This document shows, piece by piece, positions 7,887 to 27,361 of a stretch of DNA of 64,000 nucleotides. The notes under the pieces were generated by a model. That model ran no database searches. It was not told the DNA's origin and saw nothing but the letters and a program-made list of their open reading frames with translations. The position numbers were made by a program, and so were the translations under genes. Origin of the DNA: a bacterium (GTDB taxonomy: Bacteria; Patescibacteriota; Saccharimonadia; Saccharimonadales; SZUA-47); contig JAUHXF010000001.1 of assembly GCA_030427125.1 (NCBI GenBank), positions 19,091-83,090 of the forward strand, read 5' to 3'. Each line of letters opens with the position of its first letter. Position 1 is the first letter of the stretch.

Positions 7887-7915
7887 TTGACGGTTATCGG
7901 CTTTAGACGTATAAT
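7887..7915 (+). promoter_or_regulatory. Sigma-70-type promoter for tRNA-Asn
   Basis: TTGACG, 17 nt spacer, TATAAT. The element lies about 49 nt upstream of the tRNA 5' end. Confidence 0.6.
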
Positions 7916-7963: not shown

Positions 7964-8038
7964 TCCGGAGTAGCTCAGTGGTAGAGCAAGAAGCTGTTAA
8001 CTTCGAGGTCGCTGGTTCGAATCCAGTCTCCGGAGCCA
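7964..8038 (+). tRNA. tRNA-Asn (GTT), CCA encoded
   Basis: Cloverleaf by hand. Acceptor TCCGGAG/CTCCGGA, D arm GCTC/GAGC, anticodon loop CTGTTAA, T arm GCTGG-TTCGAAT-CCAGT, discriminator G, then CCA. Confidence 0.9.
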
Positions 8039-8090
8039 TGAAAAGAACCGTAGCCTAATGGCTGCGGTTTTTTTCATACCCCTGAGCCTG
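8033..8090 (+). repeat. Direct repeat copy 1 (last 6 nt of tRNA-Asn plus terminator and flank)
   Basis: GAGCCATGAAAAGAACCGTAGCCTAATGGCTGCGGTTTTTTTCATACCCC.GAG.CTG. It is near-identical to 8982-9038, differing by one T indel and two substitutions. Confidence 0.85.
8046..8074 (+). terminator. Intrinsic terminator after tRNA-Asn
   Basis: 10-bp stem AACCGTAGCC/GGCTGCGGTT, TAAT loop, T7 tract. Confidence 0.8.
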
Positions 8091-8299
8091 GATGAGAACC
8101 AGGCTTTTGCGTAAGCAAAAGTGGTTCGGTGTAGTGAGGTGTAAGCAGAGAAAGCACAAAGTATTTTCTCTGCATCCGAACGGAAAAGCGTAGCGCTATC
8201 CAGTCATATAAGCACTATGGAAACATAGTGTTTTTGTTTTGTTGGTAGTACTATATAGATTAAGAAATATATCTAATAAAAGCAGTGGGGAGAATACAT

Positions 8300-8950
8300 A
8301 TGCATACACAAAAAGGATTCAGTCTAATAGAGGGACTGCTCATAGTCCTAGTTATCTCAGTCATAGGATTTGGTGGCTATTATGTTTGGTCGCAGCAAGA
8401 TGATAAAGAGACAAATACTACTGAGACAGTTCAAGAGGTGCCAATGAATAGCGAAGCAGTGGGCCAATCAGGGGACGAAACCGCCAACTTATCCAGTAAT
8501 AGTTTAAGTGGTAATGAGTTTCTTGAGCTTGAAGAGCCGGCAGTTATTGTTAACGAAAAAGATGTTGATAGTTTGCCTGCGGAAACTCCAGGATCATTTG
8601 TGGAGTATTTAAGAGAAGTCGTCAGGGAAAATACGCCAGATGAGCTGAGCGGTTGTGTTGCGGAATATACCATATCAATAATTAGTAATGTGAATGTAGC
8701 AGGTGGTATATCGAGTATTGACGAGGAAACGCTCTCGAGCAGCGGATCTTGTGGGGCTGGAGCCAAAAAAGTCTGGGTGTATGACGGTAATAGTTGGGAT
8801 GATTCTGCAAGCGGACAGGATGCACCAGTTTGTTCTAATTTAAATGAACCAGTTATATATAGTGAATTTGTTGAGAAATGCTACGAGGACAGTGAAGGTA
8901 CGAAGTTAATTGATAACCCTAATGGGTCAATTACAAACTCTGTAAATTAG
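8300..8950 (+). CDS. Type IV pilin-like protein (prepilin N-terminal cleavage/methylation motif)
   Basis: Leader MHTQKG followed by FSLIEGLLIVLVISVIG, with Glu at +5. GGGGAG lies 7 nt upstream of the ATG at 8300. The ORF-track GTG at 8285 is less likely. Confidence 0.75.
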   Translation: MHTQKGFSLIEGLLIVLVISVIGFGGYYVWSQQDDKETNTTETVQEVPMNSEAVGQSGDETANLSSNSLSGNEFLELEEPAVIVNEKDVDSLPAETPGSFVEYLREVVRENTPDELSGCVAEYTISIISNVNVAGGISSIDEETLSSSGSCGAGAKKVWVYDGNSWDDSASGQDAPVCSNLNEPVIYSEFVEKCYEDSEGTKLIDNPNGSITNSVN

Positions 8951-8981
8951 ACATATTATTTCTAACCTCCTCCACTACAGA

Positions 8982-9038
8982 GAGCCATGAAAAGAACCGT
9001 AGCCTAATGGCTGCGGTTTTTTCATACCCCAGAGTCTG
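8982..9038 (+). repeat. Direct repeat copy 2 (tRNA 3'-end/terminator duplicate)
   Basis: Same sequence as 8033-8090. The bases immediately upstream (TCCACTACAGA) weakly resemble the tRNA T-arm/acceptor. Confidence 0.85.
8995..9022 (+). terminator. Intrinsic terminator after the pilin gene (duplicate of the tRNA terminator)
   Basis: Same 10-bp stem and TAAT loop, with a T6 tract. Confidence 0.75.
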
Positions 9039-9160
9039 ACTATGCTTACATGAAATATAATTGTGTATTGTCTGACTACAGTACGTGCTTGGTACAAATA
9101 GACACCTACTCCTGTATATTTGATTTGACGCTGTTAATCGAGCAACGAAGTAAGTAGACT

Positions 9161-9433
9161 ATGATTATGATTACCGAAAAAACTGCATTCCACGACATCA
9201 CAGATGAGCTAAAAGCAGCATTACAAAAAGAAAACCTCACTGAATATTGGAACAGTCTAACTGACATACAGCGTAACGAATGGGTTTGCTGGACAACAAT
9301 GGCGAAACAACAAGCCACTCGCGATAAGAGACTTAAGCGAGCGATTGAAGAAATGCTTGATGGTGATAAAACTCCGTGCTGTTGGCCTGGTTGTCCGCAT
9401 CGACGACCGAACGCAGCTAAATGGTTCAAATAA
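9161..9433 (+). CDS. YdeI/OmpD-associated family protein
   Basis: 90 aa. The NEWVCWTTMAKQQATRDKRLKRAIEEML...CCWPGCPHR pattern is typical of the YdeI/OmdA domain. An alternative ATG at 9167 lies 6 nt after a TAGACT box. Confidence 0.6.
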   Translation: MIMITEKTAFHDITDELKAALQKENLTEYWNSLTDIQRNEWVCWTTMAKQQATRDKRLKRAIEEMLDGDKTPCCWPGCPHRRPNAAKWFK

Positions 9434-9548
9434 GACACCTAATCCGTAAAGTCCACTTGAGCATATCCTTCAATAAAGATCAGAATAGTACCAATCTTTC
9501 TGCTTGTAGATATCAATAGGTCCTCACGGCTATATCCGAGTTCTTTGT

Positions 9549-9557
9549 TGCTATACT
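9549..9557 (+). promoter_or_regulatory. Extended -10 promoter (TGcTATACT) 6 nt upstream of ATG 9564; leaderless mRNA predicted
   Basis: TGCTATACT-TTAACC-ATG, with no Shine-Dalgarno sequence. Confidence 0.5.
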
Positions 9558-9563
9558 TTAACC

Positions 9564-9839
9564 ATGAAAACGGAAGGAAAATATACTAACGGACAGATCG
9601 TAAAGGAACAAAAAGGTGATATTCTTACGTTTTACCATAAAGATGGGAAGATAAAAGCTCGCGGCAAGTACATTAATGACTCATTTGAGGGCAAGTGGGA
9701 GTTTTTCAAAAAAGAAGGTTATCTATGGAACGTTGGTCATTTTAAAAACAATCAAAAACATGGGAAATGGATACGCTACCGCTCTGACGATAGTATCGAA
9801 AAAGAGCAAGTGTTCAGTGAAGGTATCGAAGTAAAGTAG
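9564..9839 (+). CDS. MORN-variant repeat protein (YwqK-like)
   Basis: Repeats of the type GKYINDSFEGKWEFFKKEG and GHFKNNQKHGKWIRY. Confidence 0.6.
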   Translation: MKTEGKYTNGQIVKEQKGDILTFYHKDGKIKARGKYINDSFEGKWEFFKKEGYLWNVGHFKNNQKHGKWIRYRSDDSIEKEQVFSEGIEVK

Positions 9840-9944
9840 CTGTTAGTAACTAGGTTTCTTGTATGACGGATATTCTGTGATGATAATCACACTATTATTT
9901 GCCTAGTTGAACGATAATACATTTGAATAATAAGGAGAAGCGAA

Positions 9945-10355
9945 ATGGCAAAGAGTAGTTCAAGTGATATTAGTGGCTGGATAGGATGGGTATATTTTGG
10001 TGGGCTGATGATGGTCTTCCTAGGGATAATGCATGCTATAGCTGGCCTGGTAGCACTATTCAAAGACGAGGTATACGTAATTGGTGAAAAAAATATCTGG
10101 GTTCTTGATTATACTTCTTGGGGCTGGATACACCTCTTAGCCGGTCTACTAGTATTGTGTGCAGGGTTCGCAGTCATGTCTGGAAAGATGTGGGGAAGAG
10201 TTTTGGGAATTATTTTGGGAATTATTGCTGCTGTTGCAAACTTTGCGTTTATACCAATCTATCCACTATGGTCCATTGTTATGTTGGTTGTAGCAATCCT
10301 CGTCGTTTATGCACTAGTAGCTCATGGTGATGAGGCAAAGAAAATACTAGAGTAG
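9945..10355 (+). CDS. Four-TM membrane protein (DUF7144-like)
   Basis: 136 aa with four hydrophobic helices. Upstream Shine-Dalgarno sequence is AAGGAGAAG. Confidence 0.55.
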   Translation: MAKSSSSDISGWIGWVYFGGLMMVFLGIMHAIAGLVALFKDEVYVIGEKNIWVLDYTSWGWIHLLAGLLVLCAGFAVMSGKMWGRVLGIILGIIAAVANFAFIPIYPLWSIVMLVVAILVVYALVAHGDEAKKILE

Positions 10356-10402
10356 AGATTAAAAAGTATCCATATCAATAAAGGAATACGGAGATTATTT
10401 CT

Positions 10403-10696
10403 ATGGACGAATCGAACACAAGTGATTCTGGTTCTCACAACGTGTTGACAGTTATTCTAATTTTAATGCTACTTGGACTGGGAGTTGCCTTCCTCTTATA
10501 CTGGCAAGATGTTAATAGAACGCAAGATGCACAACAAGCCGAAATAGAGCGTTTAAATCAACAAGTCGAAGAAACTCAGAACAACGTTTCTGATTCTATT
10601 GATGAAATAAATATGAATTCGCAGGAGCGGCAACAAGATAGACAAGACAAGGTAGATGATTTATCTGATTCTGATGATGTAGAGTCTGAAGAATAG
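10403..10696 (+). CDS. Hypothetical single-TM acidic coiled-coil protein
   Basis: 97 aa with one N-terminal TM helix and a Q/E/D-rich tail. CGGAG lies upstream. Confidence 0.45.
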   Translation: MDESNTSDSGSHNVLTVILILMLLGLGVAFLLYWQDVNRTQDAQQAEIERLNQQVEETQNNVSDSIDEINMNSQERQQDRQDKVDDLSDSDDVESEE

Positions 10697-10721
10697 CTAA
10701 GCTCTACAGTTTTTCATTATG

Positions 10722-10730
10722 TGAGATACT
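10722..10730 (+). promoter_or_regulatory. Extended -10 promoter (TGaGATACT) 6 nt upstream of ATG 10737; leaderless mRNA predicted
   Basis: ATGTGAGATACTGGT-CTA-ATG. The 15-mer is identical to 15004-15018. Confidence 0.45.
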
Positions 10731-10736
10731 GGTCTA

Positions 10737-11420
10737 ATGAAAAACGTGCTTTTGAAAAATTCAATTATCGCAACACCCCTTTATTTACTCTCTATAGTAC
10801 CGTTTGTTTTTATAGCATCGTGGTTAGAGATAGATATTAGTATGGGGCATGTGTTGCTTGGTGCTCTTGGCTGGTGGGTAGCATTACTGCTTAGGTTGCC
10901 ATTTATTCTTTTCATTCAAAAGCGGATAAACGACCAAGAGGTTGCTAGTAAGTATGTAGTAGGCATTTCAGGACCAGCCGAAGAATTTGTTCGTATGCTG
11001 GTACTCTTGGTGATTGGTCTGACTGTAGACAACGGGTATTCTATTGGACTAGGATGGGCAGCTATAGAGGTGTTGTACGGGCTTGTTCAGCTGTTTGGTA
11101 TTGCGAGTTTAAATCAAAAAACTGATAAGAAATCTCTTGAAGCCAAAGAAATGCTTGCAAAAATGGGCATGGACAAATCGTTTGAAAGTTCTACACCGTT
11201 TTGGGGTGCGCTCGAACGTGTTTCAGCTACAGCAGTGCATATAAGTTTCGGTTTAGTATTAGTACCTAATCCATTATTTATTTTATGTACTATTCCGCTG
11301 CATAGCCTTCTTAATTTCATGGTTCTGAAGCTGAATAAGAATAGCGTCATGTTGTCTCAATTGGCATTTCTTCTTGTGTCATTGCCAGTATTCTTGATGT
11401 TAGTCATTTTCGGACGTTAA
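10737..11420 (+). CDS. CPBP/YhfC-type intramembrane glutamic protease family protein
   Basis: Polytopic protein with motifs GPAEEFVR (EExxR), AVHISFG and HSLLN (HxxxN). Confidence 0.5.
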   Translation: MKNVLLKNSIIATPLYLLSIVPFVFIASWLEIDISMGHVLLGALGWWVALLLRLPFILFIQKRINDQEVASKYVVGISGPAEEFVRMLVLLVIGLTVDNGYSIGLGWAAIEVLYGLVQLFGIASLNQKTDKKSLEAKEMLAKMGMDKSFESSTPFWGALERVSATAVHISFGLVLVPNPLFILCTIPLHSLLNFMVLKLNKNSVMLSQLAFLLVSLPVFLMLVIFGR

Positions 11421-22795: not shown

Positions 22796-23572
22796 ATGAG
22801 CATTATAGAAGCAATCATTCTTGGTTTGCTGCAAGGTTTAACGGAGTTTATACCTGTTTCAAGCTCTGGGCATTTACTGATAGCTCACGAGATATTTGGT
22901 ACGACCACAAACACGCTAGCTTTTGATGTTGCTTTGCACGTCGGAACACTTATCGCACTTATCTATTACTTTTGGCGTGACATACTAACGCTCGCAAAGA
23001 ATGTGCTAACCAAAAATAAAGAAGGAGCTCTCGCTCGGTTATTGGTATATGCAACCCTTCCAGCTGCTTTGTTGGGGTTTGTTTTTTCTGATTTTATCGA
23101 CGACCACCTCAGAGAACCAATCGTAGTTGTTATAACGTTGAGCATTATTGCTGTACTCATGATAATTGCAGATAAGCTTTCAGTGAGTAGAAAAAAAACG
23201 GATGAAGTCTCAACAGGTCAGGGGTTGTCTATTGGCTTTGCGCAGGCGTTAGCGCTTGTTCCAGGCGTGTCACGTTCGGGTATCACGATAACAACGGGAG
23301 TTCTAGCAGGATTGACGAAGAAAGAGGCTGCACGATTTTCATTTTTGCTCGCGGTACCAATTATTTCAGGTTCAGCACTAGGAATTTTTCTTCAAGAGTC
23401 CGATGGACTGTCGACGGGTGGATGGCAAATAGCATTTGGTATGATTGCAGCTTGCATTAGTGGTCTATTTGCAATCAAATTCATGCTCGGAATTATTGAG
23501 AAAACTGGACTAACGCCTTTTGCATACTATCGATTTATCGTTGCTGTGTTGGTTCTTATCTTCTTAGTATAG
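22796..23572 (+). CDS. uppP: Undecaprenyl-diphosphate phosphatase
   Basis: SIIEAIILGLLQGLTEFIPVSSSGHL and GVSRSG motifs in a polytopic protein. Confidence 0.9.
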   Translation: MSIIEAIILGLLQGLTEFIPVSSSGHLLIAHEIFGTTTNTLAFDVALHVGTLIALIYYFWRDILTLAKNVLTKNKEGALARLLVYATLPAALLGFVFSDFIDDHLREPIVVVITLSIIAVLMIIADKLSVSRKKTDEVSTGQGLSIGFAQALALVPGVSRSGITITTGVLAGLTKKEAARFSFLLAVPIISGSALGIFLQESDGLSTGGWQIAFGMIAACISGLFAIKFMLGIIEKTGLTPFAYYRFIVAVLVLIFLV

Positions 23573-23602
23573 TAAAATACTGCTAAAGCTTAAGGGGGAG
23601 AT

Positions 23603-24340
23603 ATGACGTTTAGTGTAAACATGAAACGATTGTTTCAAGGAGCACAGTTTTTGCTAGTGATTGCAGTATTTGGGTTGGTTTTATGGTCTCAGCCATGGAG
23701 CACTACATCGAGCTCTGATGCGGTGAAGACGATTACGGTCACCGGTGAAACAACTATTGAAGCAACGCCTGATGAGTTTACGTTCTATCCGTACTTTCGC
23801 AAAGAGGGTACAGATAAAGATGCACTTCGAGAGGAACTTGTCTCAGATGCGAACGCTATCGTGAACTCCTTGAAGGACCTAGGAGTAGCCGAGGAACAGA
23901 TTCAGCTTGATGCAAGTAGTTATGACGCTTGGTACTGGCAAGAGGACGAAGAAGGGATTTTGACCGTAAACCTTACAATAACGACAAAAGACGACGATCA
24001 AGCGCAGGCTATACAAGATTATCTACTGACCACTGACGCCGAAGGACAATTAACACCTCAAACGACATTTAGTGATGAGAAGCAAAAAGAGTTAGATGCG
24101 CTTGCTGTGGAACAGGCTGCAGCTGATGCTAAAGAAAAGGCGGCAAAACAGGCAGAACTATTTGGAGCTGAACTCGGTGATGTGCAAGAAATTAGTCAGG
24201 GAAGAGATTCGATATTCGGAGGCTACCCTATTGCAGCTGAGCTAGATCTACAGCGTAGTAGCGAAGCTAGCTTACCAGTTCTTCCTGGTCAAGACGACTA
24301 TCGACAGACAGTCGTTGTCGTCTACGAGTTGAAGCAATAA
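23603..24340 (+). CDS. SIMPL (DUF541) domain protein
   Basis: Signal anchor, ITVTGE...EATPDE start of the domain and LPVLPGQ...VVVVYEL end. AAGGGGGAG lies upstream as a Shine-Dalgarno sequence. Confidence 0.65.
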   Translation: MTFSVNMKRLFQGAQFLLVIAVFGLVLWSQPWSTTSSSDAVKTITVTGETTIEATPDEFTFYPYFRKEGTDKDALREELVSDANAIVNSLKDLGVAEEQIQLDASSYDAWYWQEDEEGILTVNLTITTKDDDQAQAIQDYLLTTDAEGQLTPQTTFSDEKQKELDALAVEQAAADAKEKAAKQAELFGAELGDVQEISQGRDSIFGGYPIAAELDLQRSSEASLPVLPGQDDYRQTVVVVYELKQ

Positions 24341-25468: not shown

Positions 25469-25577
25469 ACAGTAAACTAGTTAAGGGACAATAAAAAGTA
25501 AAAAATACTATATCTAGCGTTTAGAATTGAGTGTACACTACTAGCAGTTTCGAGCAATCGAGCGCTTAAAAGCAAAA

Positions 25578-25670
25578 ATCGCCGGAAGAAGGGTGTAATT
25601 CCCTCACTGTGCCGCAACGGTTAAAGTCCGATCTGGCGTTAAAGTCCCGAGCAGGAAAACGAGAGATTTG
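25578..25670 (+). promoter_or_regulatory. Cobalamin riboswitch-like element (compact, class-II-like)
   Basis: The core CGGAA-GAAG-GGTG-TAATTCC-CTCA-CTG-T-GCCGC-AACGGT-TAAAGTCCGATCTGGCG follows my recollection of the RF00174 blocks (GGGAA, GGTGnnAAnTCC, CnG..CCGCnACnGT, B12-box-like AGTCCGA..CTGGCG). Hand-folded helices are 25580-85/25633-38, 25590-93/25601-04 and 25606-10/25617-21. Confidence 0.5.
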
Positions 25671-25714: not shown

Positions 25715-27361
25715 ATGAGTGTCGGGCAACACTTGAGTGAGGTGAGTTTAGATAAATACGAACAGGAACTACTACAAGATCCTGGTATTCAAGATGCGTA
25801 TGTAGATTTTGAGATGCAACGATTAGATGAGCAGCTTCTTGCACAGAATCGACTGCTCACGGAAGTCGACCATTTACTTGCGCTTCGCGTAGGGCCAAAT
25901 CAATTTGTCGATACTAAAGACGTTTTACAAAACATGGAAACGTCTATGCAAGAACAGGCTATGCCGTATGCGGTTACGACAACTGAGCATGATATTGATA
26001 TAGAAAAAAACACAAAAGAAAGAATTGTGCGTTGGCTCGGGATGACAGCGGTACAGGTGGCCGTATCGGGCTATGACTTTCATGCGCATGAGTCAGCTAG
26101 AGAACGCGTAGCAGTAGAGATTGACGAAGCGTACAGGGCCTCAACGCATCAGGATGACGGTACGATGCGGGTGTTTGTATCACCACGTATGAGCCGAAAG
26201 GATGCAAGTCTAGAAGTAGCTCGCAGTGAGCACCTCGGTGACGACGATGCTATTCGTGTGAGCTGGGTAAAAACTCTTCCAGACGGATCACAAAAACGAG
26301 TTCTGCAGTCGATCCTTGTACGGGATATTCCACTGTCAGCTTGGGTGGCAATGTTTGAAGATTCAAACAATATTTTCGGTAGGTCGATGAGTGTTGAAGA
26401 TTCTGAGTCTGCCTTATCAATTATGAAGCTGCATGACCAGCTCGATATCGATATGGATAAGTTACCCCATGGTCCAATCTCAGTAATAGAGGCTGTAATA
26501 CCGTACATAGATGATGCTCAGATACGTATGAAGGTTATCGAACAGTCTAAGAAGTACTATGGAGATCAAACTGCGATGCAGCGCGAAGCTGAAGCAAAAG
26601 CGAAGGAATGGTTGGTGTTTGATAAAGAGCTCGCAGAGAGTCTCTATAACGAACAAGCAACTTCGAAAATAAAGAGCTTCGTTTATTCACTGCAACATGA
26701 GTGGAGCAAGAAAGATCTTGCTACGCTGAAACGTCACGAGCTGCCATATGCAGGGTATCGAATGACCAGAGAGTTAGCGGCGATGCTTGAAAGTGCACAG
26801 CAAAAAATCCTGGCAGGGCGTGCAGCGTTAACGTCAAACCCAGAGTATGTCTTGAAAAAACTAGGTGGGGATACAAGGCAGTTACAACAATTGCAAGACG
26901 TCGAGAGGTTGATCGCAGTAGCTCGACATGAAGGTATGAATCAAAATCAATTACTCGCTATGCATGTGAGAGCAATTGCAAGCAATAATATTGATGGTGG
27001 TGGTGGTGGGTGCGCTGGTAGTAGCTCAACTGAATTTGGAAAAGAAGATGATCCATTTAATGACGAATATAAAGGTTTTACTGAGTCTGTATTTGATTGG
27101 CAAGAATCTGAGCAAACTGAAGATGGCGGCGCGTGTGAATACAGCGGGACTTTCTGCTACTGCTGCCCTTACAATAGCGATGGTTCCGACGCTTCAAAAC
27201 CGTATGAGGTAACAATTATTCGAGACGAAAAAGGAACTGCTCGTTGTACTCGTGGTGGGTGTGGAGCGACGATGAAAGGCGATACTGTTACAGACAAAGG
27301 TGGGATTTACAAAAAAGCGCAGGAGCATAGGAAAAATGAACAATTTACCGTCGCAGCCTAA
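25715..27361 (+). CDS. Hypothetical 548-aa cytoplasmic protein with C-terminal Gly/Cys-rich module
   Basis: Long clean ORF with no TM segments. The C-terminus has GGGGGCAGS, then C-x6-CYCC, then C-x4-C. I recognise no family. Confidence 0.6.
   Translation: MSVGQHLSEVSLDKYEQELLQDPGIQDAYVDFEMQRLDEQLLAQNRLLTEVDHLLALRVGPNQFVDTKDVLQNMETSMQEQAMPYAVTTTEHDIDIEKNTKERIVRWLGMTAVQVAVSGYDFHAHESARERVAVEIDEAYRASTHQDDGTMRVFVSPRMSRKDASLEVARSEHLGDDDAIRVSWVKTLPDGSQKRVLQSILVRDIPLSAWVAMFEDSNNIFGRSMSVEDSESALSIMKLHDQLDIDMDKLPHGPISVIEAVIPYIDDAQIRMKVIEQSKKYYGDQTAMQREAEAKAKEWLVFDKELAESLYNEQATSKIKSFVYSLQHEWSKKDLATLKRHELPYAGYRMTRELAAMLESAQQKILAGRAALTSNPEYVLKKLGGDTRQLQQLQDVERLIAVARHEGMNQNQLLAMHVRAIASNNIDGGGGGCAGSSSTEFGKEDDPFNDEYKGFTESVFDWQESEQTEDGGACEYSGTFCYCCPYNSDGSDASKPYEVTIIRDEKGTARCTRGGCGATMKGDTVTDKGGIYKKAQEHRKNEQFTVAA

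Follow-up and report, generated by a model that had tools for sequence, protein, structure and literature searches.

The window analyzed here is a 64,000-nt stretch (64 kb) of contig JAUHXF010000001.1, from a Saccharibacteria genome, and the element in question lies behind its tRNA-Asn gene, where a direct repeat beginning with GAGCCA, the final 6 nt of the tRNA, brackets a type IV pilin-like gene. Compared with about 25 Saccharibacteria loci (given below by L numbers), this segment reads as a succession of modules: tRNA-Asn; a terminator and a non-coding mini-cassette; a module termed termX, the pilin-like gene and a tRNA-like closing site, s31'; and then the first terminator again with a truncated mini-cassette. 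Gene-cassette arrays of this layout occur behind tRNA-Asn in many Saccharibacteria, and we consider it probable that they are built at the 3' end of tRNA-Asn by serial Campbell-type recombination at GAGCCA with the help of an unlinked recombinase. The features of the array in the window are as follows.

7964..8038, + strand: tRNA-Asn (GTT), the array anchor (ARAGORN; Rfam tRNA, 67.6 bits)
8021..8038, + strand: site 0, the tRNA 3' end ATCCAGTCTCCGGAGCCA, an 18-mer copied in relatives as s18
8033..8090, + strand: direct repeat copy 1, consisting of GAGCCA, the terminator and the first 16-17 nt of the mini-cassette
8046..8074, + strand: intrinsic terminator 1, stem 8046-8055 / 8060-8069, loop TAAT, T7 run
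8075..8205, + strand: type-A mini-cassette body, non-coding, with homologues behind tRNA-Asn in L006, L013, L020, L021, L023 and L048
start of 8075-8205, + strand: mini-cassette leader CATACCCC, which opens the body
8083-8094, + strand: left inverted repeat TGAGCCTGGATG, approximately the tRNA end in reverse complement
8096-8130, + strand: conserved hairpin GAACCAG...CTGGTTCGG inside the mini-cassette
8198-8205, + strand: truncated s18 copy ATCCAGTC, in which only the first 8 nt of the 18-nt tRNA-end copy remain
8208..8243, + strand: termX module ATAAGCACTATGGAAACATAGTGTTTTTG... (8210-8233 in the terminator scan), which opens open reading frame (ORF) cassettes in many arrays
8300..8950, + strand: type IV pilin-like protein, 216 aa, with an N-terminal class III signal motif; the sole ORF between the repeat copies
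8959..8987, + strand: s31' site TTTCTAACCTCCTCCACTACAGAGAGCCA, a divergent version of the conserved 30-nt pseudo-tRNA-Asn end found at the close of ORF cassettes
8982..9038, + strand: direct repeat copy 2, consisting of GAGCCA, the terminator and a truncated mini-cassette start
8995..9022, + strand: intrinsic terminator 2, stem 8995-9004 / 9009-9018, T6 run
9023..9039, + strand: mini-cassette stump CATACCCCAGAGTCTGA, the first 17 nt of a further mini-cassette and the distal end of the array

A repeat search of the window returned an exact direct repeat of 41 nt (8033-8073 and 8982-9022), continued by a 22-nt stretch (8069-8090 and 9017-9038) with 91% identity. The whole repeat of 57/58 nt is present only twice in the window, starts with GAGCCA and ends about 17 nt past the T run; its 34-nt core occurred twice in the 64 kb with 3 mismatches allowed, where 0.00 occurrences were expected. 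The initial annotation had described this repeat as the last 6 nt of tRNA-Asn plus a terminator with a 10-bp stem, which we confirmed (one G-T pair is among the 10 bp of terminator 1), and global alignment bore out the stated differences between the copies, one T indel (T7 versus T6) and two substitutions (T/A and C/T). It had also extended the repeat about 15 nt beyond the terminator. These nucleotides are indeed repeated, but the last 17 are the start of a mini-cassette and not mere sequence past a terminator. The 57-nt repeat is thus the opening module common to unit 1 and the truncated last unit, composed of GAGCCA, the terminator and CATACCCC.GAG.CTG. The exact repeat comprises GAGCCA and sequence downstream of it only; on the 5' side of copy 2, the tRNA-like arm corresponds to the diverged s31'. 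The tRNA similarity noted earlier at this position is therefore real, but more than faint, since 8959-8987 is a diverged copy of a conserved 30-nt site: the bases before copy 2, TTTCTAACCTCCTCCACTACAGA followed by GAGCCA, match L013 2588-2617, AGTTCGAACGTCCTCCACTATGGA followed by GAGCCA, which is likewise succeeded by a terminator and a mini-element. From position 9040, beginning with CTATGCTTACATG, the flank is unrelated.

The roughly 890 bp between the copies do hold a structured non-coding stretch and a pilin-like gene, as first described, but they constitute two array units and not one cargo: unit 1, the non-coding mini-cassette, spans 8039-8205, and unit 2, the pilin cassette, spans 8206-8987. 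The non-coding stretch is strongly structured (fold z = -3.95), and the left end of the mini-cassette is complementary to its right end (p ~0.006). For the 8075-8243 stretch, no Rfam family was found either at the gathering threshold or at E up to 10, where only chance-level matches appeared. While termX directly follows GAGCCA in L037, L038, L043, L045, L048 and L052, in the window it lacks the usual GAGCCA-AGC leader and is preceded instead by ATCCAGTC-AT; the middle site has therefore lost about 10-13 nt by deletion, which fused units 1 and 2 at 8205/8206. A compositional anomaly of the bracketed insert, which had been suggested as a check, was ruled out, its GC content (0.41-0.43) being no different from that of its neighbors (0.39-0.45). 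A sigma-70-like promoter lies ahead of tRNA-Asn at 7887-7915 (11/12 in the promoter scan). Several other identities were considered for these features and rejected: a transfer-messenger RNA, permuted or not (acceptor and discriminator unfit, none called by ARAGORN); an intron-containing or second tRNA on either strand (no acceptor pairing); a retroviral-type primer-binding site, suggested by the 18-nt length (no reverse transcriptase, and the boundary simply falls in the T loop); the template/variable repeat of a diversity-generating retroelement (the repeat is non-coding); and a dif-like site (no dyad).

The pilin-like ORF is preceded by a GGGGAG resembling a ribosome-binding site (8287-8292). 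Its N-terminus, MHTQKG followed by FSLIEGLLIVLVISV, has the features of a class III signal peptide (MHTQKG before FSLIEGLLIVLVISVIGFGG), with G at -1, a hydrophobic helix and E at +5. The Pfam family N_methyl matched it with 16.9 bits (E = 0.0047), below the gathering cut-off of 21.2, and no other ORF in the window has a type IV pilin N-terminus. The protein is a near-orphan, with 34% identity to its best full-length relative; its relatives are annotated as PilA/FimT by JGI. Compared with the pilin-like protein of a cassette in L048 (ORF212), the window protein is 68% identical at the N-terminus and unrelated in its globular part. The two cassettes are of similar length (783 nt in the window versus 743 nt in L048), and both are ordered termX-ORF-s31.

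Sites were scanned for in 238 kb of DNA from Saccharibacteria. With the 25-mer of the tRNA 3' end, an exact-match scan of species-representative genomes yielded 20 loci, mostly from Saccharibacteria, and a scan of metagenome contigs with TCCTCCACTAYRGAGAGCCA yielded 13, of which nine were genuine (L037 and L039 being one array) and four (L040, L041, L047 and L049) were discarded as high-GC chance matches. Three site types emerged: s18, the tRNA-end copy; s31, with the consensus AGTTCGAACGTCCTCCACTAYGGAGAGCCA; and sV2, with the consensus ...TTAATTACAGTTATAACTTCCTCTATTGTGGTGAGCCA, which has 21 of 31 positions in common with s31. When s31 copies were anchored on GAGCCA, the mean frequency of the top base was 0.94 over 30 nt, compared with 0.46 just upstream and 0.55 downstream; the conservation of sV2 was 0.93. 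Both s31 and sV2 resemble shrunken 3' halves of tRNA-Asn, with the GTTNNAAC palindrome, a CTC...GAG dyad and the terminal GAGCCA. Throughout the 238 kb, wherever a locus included the tRNA, every match to s18, s31 or sV2 was located downstream of tRNA-Asn and on the tRNA strand. The conservation of the 30-48-nt sites, together with this exclusive location, argues for recognition by a protein. The suggestion that the segment is a decayed islet appears less apt, as such strong conservation across genomes (0.94 versus about 0.5 in the flanks) points to maintained function rather than decay.

The arrays follow two rules. Each unit opens with its own intrinsic terminator straight after GAGCCA, and each closes with a pseudo-tRNA-Asn 3' end whose final letters are again GAGCCA. 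Unit sizes are bimodal: ORF-less units measure 120-183 nt and units with ORFs 480-2152 nt. Most of the ORF cassettes contain one or two ORFs, and in most cases the orientation is that of the tRNA. The clearest array is that of L048, with up to 8 units in 3.3 kb, in which one opening module is present three times. It is given here with three further arrays.

L048, units 1-2: tRNA-Asn; terminator, mini-element and s18; termX, ORF155 and s31
L048, units 3-4: terminator, mini-element and a degenerate site; termX', ORF200 and s31'
L048, units 5-6: terminator, mini-element and s18; an interval with opposite-strand ORFs and sV2
L048, units 7-8: terminator, mini-element and site; termX, pilin-like ORF212 and s31; then terminator and mini-element up to the contig end
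L020: tRNA-Asn; three ORF cassettes of 908, 670 and 663 nt, each closed by sV2; then two mini-cassettes
L037: tRNA-Asn; termX, ORF194 and s31; termX and ORF118
L052: two multi-gene cassettes closed by sV2 (FUR/rhodanese, RibD_C)

The opposite-strand interval of L048 is read as toxin-antitoxin-like from its ORF layout alone. The Pfam search of cargo covered 10 of 22 cargo ORFs, and the cargo families include HNH endonuclease, shikimate kinase, GrpB, zeta-toxin-like kinase, DUF1801, peptidase S51, methyltransferase and membrane proteins. Pilin-like cargo recurs in the window, L045 and L048. In L053 (1-816), genes for peptidase S51 and a zeta-toxin-like kinase are adjacent in a region without tRNA-Asn or recognizable sites; the same two families are also cassette cargo in L038 and L020.

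The numbers and sizes of these units bear on the explanation that the locus is the remnant of one integrative element, such as a prophage, an integrative and conjugative element (ICE) or an integrative and mobilizable element (IME), which inserted at tRNA-Asn, lost its integrase and most of its genes and is now immobile. Cis-mobilizable elements (CIMEs) are defined as just such remnants (PMC5704250), the repeat includes the tRNA end, no integrase was found, the middle site of the window is damaged, and in L019 a large serine recombinase gene abuts tRNA-Asn. We judge this explanation very improbable nevertheless, because the units are tiny, mostly single-gene and numerous, as the L048 array illustrates, the site families are common to several genera and the sites are strongly conserved and not decaying. 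The cargo searched with Pfam (10 of 22 cargo ORFs) held no phage or conjugation relics, and no site was present on IMG/VR viral contigs.

The cargo differs between relatives at the same address. Among those that share the synteny from Kch to tRNA-Asn, L009 carries only a mini-cassette and L052 the two multi-gene cassettes. The Kch anchor gave no information in L050 and L051, which end before the tRNA, nor in L053, which has no tRNA-Asn within 10 kb; OmdA was dropped as an anchor of synteny, its homologues (72-85% identity) lying in unrelated and partly mobile contexts, one of them beside a large serine recombinase and a restriction-modification (RM) system. Bracketing by the tRNA end and a terminator recurs as well, with GAGCCA and termX around a single ORF in L037 and a repeat of about 70 nt around the whole array in L052. 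The same arrangement is thus not found in all relatives, and the att-like signature of recombination at the tRNA-Asn 3' end, as first annotated, is supported. The related proposal of an exchange site for pilin cassettes holds in part: syntenic relatives carry other cargo, homology starts at GAGCCA and two junctions exist in one sample (see below), but the cargo is diverse and the site is not specific for pilins.

These differences, with which it is already in contradiction, also leave a local, ancient duplication of the tRNA terminator, serving the pilin gene and implying no mobility, with next to no credibility. Both copies look like functional terminators and are well placed for the tRNA and for the pilin gene, as such a duplication would have it, but copy 2 is flanked by a site conserved across genomes and by a mini-cassette stump, and the same layout exists elsewhere with unrelated terminators and cargo.

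The position of the exchange emerged from comparisons of junctions. The same opening modules follow the tRNA, s18, s31 or sV2 interchangeably, both within and between genomes, and the break always falls straight after GAGCCA. This applies to termX, to the 'GAAGTCAGAACTG...' terminator, to the 'AACTAAGAATAGACC...' terminator and to the window-type 'TGAAAAGA...' terminator. HIT-like cassettes of L048 and L043 are 85% identical from GAGCCA through the stop codon, unrelated to the left of GAGCCA (s18-type versus s31-type) and different to the right of the ORF. In L038 and L045, which come from one metagenome sample, the sequences are identical through the cassette end, s31 and the start of termX and are then unrelated, so that two alternative junctions are represented. 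A C/T variant 10 nt inside s31 is independent of the downstream module, which places the exchange in the last ~9 nt of the site or just beyond.

In the main rival explanation, exchange of this kind would result from RecA-dependent homologous recombination or gene conversion after natural DNA uptake, with the conserved modules acting as short homology arms. The 41 nt of perfect identity in the window, the near-identity of opening modules within arrays (three copies in L048), chimeric mini-cassettes with extra breakpoints at an internal GGTTCG motif and the fact that no recombinase was found near any array are all in line with it. Saccharibacteria are naturally transformable, as documented for N. 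lyticus with arms of 300 bp (PMC11623550). RecA-dependent exchange leaves unexplained, however, why a tRNA-like site of 30-48 nt is 93-94% conserved across genera amid variable surroundings, why arrays occur only behind tRNA-Asn and why homology starts exactly at GAGCCA after different site types. Moreover, at 30-40 nt the homology arms would be barely long enough for exchange by RecA. We therefore regard it as unlikely, though well worth keeping in view.

Mini-cassettes form the second class of units. Sequence similar to that of the window lies behind the tRNA-Asn terminator in L006, L013, L021 and L023, with the form ...CTGGAT..GAACCAG-hairpin-CTGGTTCGG...GCGCTATCCAGT. In L009, L010, L013 and L021, a 120-180-nt element closes by repeating the final 18 nt of the tRNA (ATCCAGTCTCCGGAGCCA, s18), and in L010 the terminator after the s18 copy is duplicated as well. 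Type-A mini-cassettes are imperfect palindromes, in which the left end is complementary to the s18 at the right end (p ~0.003-0.05 in five of seven), whereas type-B mini-cassettes have no significant terminal complementarity. The central hairpin keeps its pairing while its interior sequence differs between genomes. Mini-cassettes could represent empty units, accessory attC-like recombination sites or RNAs.

An RNA-level function would make the pseudo-tRNA end and terminator a 3'-processing or stability element (a substrate of RNase P/Z or the CCA enzyme) and the mini-cassette a small structured RNA, the arrays being secondary. It would suit the location of the sites directly between stop codons and terminators, the strong structure of the mini-cassette (the z of -3.95 given above) and the hairpin GAACCAG...CTGGTTCG, whose pairing outlasts the variation of its interior between genomes. 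We nonetheless find it quite improbable. Terminator 1 and the mini-cassette lie too close together to accommodate a promoter, every unit is preceded by a strong terminator, no Rfam family was matched, and the sites are absent from the remainder of the 238 kb; s31 by itself forms only a 4-bp hairpin, and an RNA function would not yield turnover of cargo with a fixed DNA breakpoint.

Further observations concern the mini-cassettes and their sites. Type-B mini-cassettes (L009, L010, L013, L048 and L026) contain a conserved bulged hairpin, AATCCCCCGCC-loop-GGCAGAYGGGCGGATT, placed between a T-loop-like GGTTCGATAATCC and the terminal ATCCAGT..., a layout resembling a tRNA T-loop copy interrupted by about 40 extra nt, on either side of which ATCC is repeated. 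Mini-cassettes of the same kind also occur behind other tRNAs. Behind tRNA-Met in L026 (5650-5920), a terminator is followed by about 110 nt, a degenerate copy of the tRNA's own 3' end (GTCCTAGTCCCGCTACCA) and a run of pilin-like genes, and tRNA-His in L025 (778-1030) has a similar layout, with the copy TTCTCATCACTCGACCCA and a pilin-like gene just upstream of the tRNA. In these two loci, the terminal copy in the mini-cassette matches whichever tRNA precedes it. A fourth type of site is a near full-length, degenerate copy of tRNA-Asn of about 75 nt, ...GATGTAAGCTA.AGTAAAGCGAGCCTGAAA.AGGGTGGTAGC....CTGGTTCGAATCCAGTCTCCGGAGCCA, which is conserved in three genomes (L012 1678-1760 and 3443-3520, minus strand; L016 640-718; L022 2650-2722) and is not called as a tRNA by ARAGORN. 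The two copies in L012 are 1.76 kb apart, with three small genes between them.

In the mechanism that we propose for the cassette array, a circular or incoming unit would recombine with the tRNA end or with a resident site, at or next to GAGCCA, in a crossover of the Campbell type. The tRNA would be spared, the terminator of the unit would come to lie behind it, and the former downstream module would be shifted to the far side of the insert. If donor and recipient carried related opening modules, the insert would be bracketed by a direct repeat, as in the window. The degenerate tRNA-like arm would always end up at the distal end of the unit, and each unit would supply the terminator for what precedes it. 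A single type of crossover would thereby explain the intact tRNA despite a degenerate arm, the distal position of that arm, the terminator of each unit and the flanking repeats. The modular architecture, the exact breakpoint at GAGCCA, the conservation of the sites, their confinement to tRNA-Asn and the turnover of cargo are observed. The exchange would be site-specific and could still be active today, and its enzyme would be encoded elsewhere in the genome.

Several points weigh against this interpretation, and the first is the enzyme itself. The initial annotation had reported no integrase, and none was found in the ORFs that we examined: no recombinase was detected among the window ORFs inspected or searched (about 20 of the 54 with at least 170 aa), among the cargo proteins submitted to Pfam or among the precomputed Pfam hits for the loci looked up, including L052 and L026, and a large serine recombinase query had no match in the whole window. 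The site-specific recombinase thus remains a hypothetical enzyme. In the loci compared, the only recombinases found were two serine recombinases not linked to the sites, one of 503 aa in L019 (6374-7900 of the oriented locus), the gene of which abuts the tRNA-Asn 3' end, and one of 526 aa in L032 (9884-11464), near an OmdA homologue, a type I RM system and a SMODS gene. Both are possible candidates for the enzyme. On IMG/VR viral contigs, s31, the mini-cassette pattern, sV2 and GAGCCA plus termX had no match, and the tRNA 18-mer matched only an unrelated high-GC phage tRNA cluster, which was rejected. Secondly, no conserved right-hand binding arm is evident after GAGCCA, where the opening modules differ; differing sequence beyond the crossover is unusual for core sites of tyrosine recombinases. 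Thirdly, the 41 nt of perfect identity would also allow exchange by RecA, and the damaged middle site may have left the unit pair of the window immobile. Neither an excised circle nor an empty site of this strain was seen in the same-strain contigs, which break at the repeat. Finally, most of the relatives are metagenome-assembled genomes (MAGs) or metagenome contigs of uncertain relatedness.

The same-strain contigs (L001-L004; Logan/NCBI, short-read) are 100% identical to the window and end at the 41-nt repeat or inside the tRNA, and hence provide no information on polymorphism at the locus. Since short-read assemblies break at the repeat or the tRNA, many arrays will appear in MAGs in pieces or not at all, and estimates of how common they are will be too low.

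A bolder reading, which we put forward only tentatively, is that the arrays represent an undescribed cassette-capture system, integron-like but independent in origin. The tRNA-Asn 3' end would correspond to attI and the pseudo-tRNA ends of 30-48 nt (s31, sV2 and s18) to attC, the palindromic ORF-less mini-cassettes would be part of the machinery, and an unlinked recombinase, which might belong to a new type or take its guidance from the structured mini-cassette, would shuffle single-gene cassettes that encode surface proteins, pilins among them, and other accessory functions. Related versions appear to act at tRNA-Met and tRNA-His. Full-text literature searches returned no description of such arrays for Saccharibacteria or Patescibacteria, which is an absence of evidence within the texts searched.

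Saccharibacteria and other bacteria of the candidate phyla radiation (CPR) have tiny genomes and depend on a host bacterium, to which type IV pili mediate attachment. To our knowledge, the variation of surface structures such as type IV pili in CPR bacteria is largely uncharted. A compact array at a fixed chromosomal address would give these bacteria a route for gaining and swapping accessory and surface genes. It could be recognized by its short conserved sites, and its content would change between close relatives. The sites offer a handle for finding arrays in thousands of MAGs and for seeking the recombinase by phylogenetic profiling, and they may serve as a natural landing pad for engineering the few cultivable Saccharibacteria. 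Should the independent cassette system prove true, it would be a second, independent example of integron-like genome architecture.

Beyond the distal end of the array, the window carries a series of small same-strand genes (9161-11420), encoding OmdA/YdeI (90 aa), a MORN-like protein (91 aa), DUF7144 (136 aa) and others. They may be former cassettes that have lost their sites; no site remnants were found among them. The genes adjoining tRNA-Asn in the window encode SHOCT and a DUF285 surface protein. Genes for UppP and a 245-aa membrane protein, which adjoin tRNA-Asn in L037 and L048, are 14 kb away in the window and on the other strand (22796-24340); therefore, the neighborhood upstream of the anchor has been rearranged. 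Elsewhere in the window, an AdoCbl-II (cobalamin) riboswitch at 25565-25644, which exceeds the gathering score with 44.2 bits, precedes a 548-aa ORF (25715-27361) without a Pfam family.

Among known systems, the arrays share with integrons a fixed anchor followed by small, mostly single-ORF, co-oriented cassettes, each closed by a conserved site, as well as diverse accessory cargo that varies between relatives (L009 and L052) and, in the type-A mini-cassettes, imperfect palindromes of attC size (110-180 nt) with a variable central hairpin. They differ in that no intI tyrosine recombinase was found beside the anchor, either in the ~20 of 54 window ORFs or in the Pfam hits of L052 and L026, and the tRNA has different upstream genes in different genomes (SHOCT, UppP and Kch). 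The anchor is the end of a tRNA gene and not attI. The sites s18, s31 and sV2 end in GAGCCA and lack R''/R' boxes (RYYYAAC/GTTRRRY), no GTTRRRY being visible at the boundary by inspection. Each unit opens with a terminator, so that there is no logic of a common cassette promoter (Pc) and the cassettes must carry promoters of their own.

In the pdif (XerC/D) modules of Acinetobacter plasmids and in the arrays of integrative mobile elements exploiting Xer (IMEX) at dif, small modules with short conserved sites are likewise served by a recombinase encoded outside the module, and CTX/TLC form tandem arrays at one chromosomal site, dif. The pdif sites are 28-bp dif-like palindromes with two 11-bp arms and a 6-bp spacer, of alternating orientation and with no link to a tRNA, whereas s31 and sV2 contain no such dyad around the boundary, as judged by inspection. 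Islands and prophages targeted to tRNA genes also use the tRNA 3' end, leave the tRNA intact, supply a terminator and are flanked by a direct repeat. They differ from the arrays described here, for which no integrase or phage genes were found and in which the repeat of the window includes only 6 nt of the tRNA and the insert is below 1 kb.

CIMEs and the tandem accretion of integrative elements at tRNA genes (Pavlovic 2004) are reviewed in PMC5704250. Like CIMEs, the arrays consist of integrase-less units, have att-type direct repeats that include the tRNA 3' end and are stacked in tandem, with mobilization in trans presumed; no integration or transfer genes were found in the cargo ORFs searched. 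They differ from CIMEs in scale and regularity, with units that are 0.12-2 kb long, carry one or two genes and are packed as densely as 8 in 3.3 kb; their sites are conserved across genera, and no cognate or parental ICE or IME with an integrase was seen. The crossover also lies at the extreme 3' end, GAGCCA, so that the element-borne tRNA-like arm can be degenerate. Thus, the layout of the arrays is integron-like, whereas their logic is closest to that of CIMEs and tandem accretion at tRNA genes.

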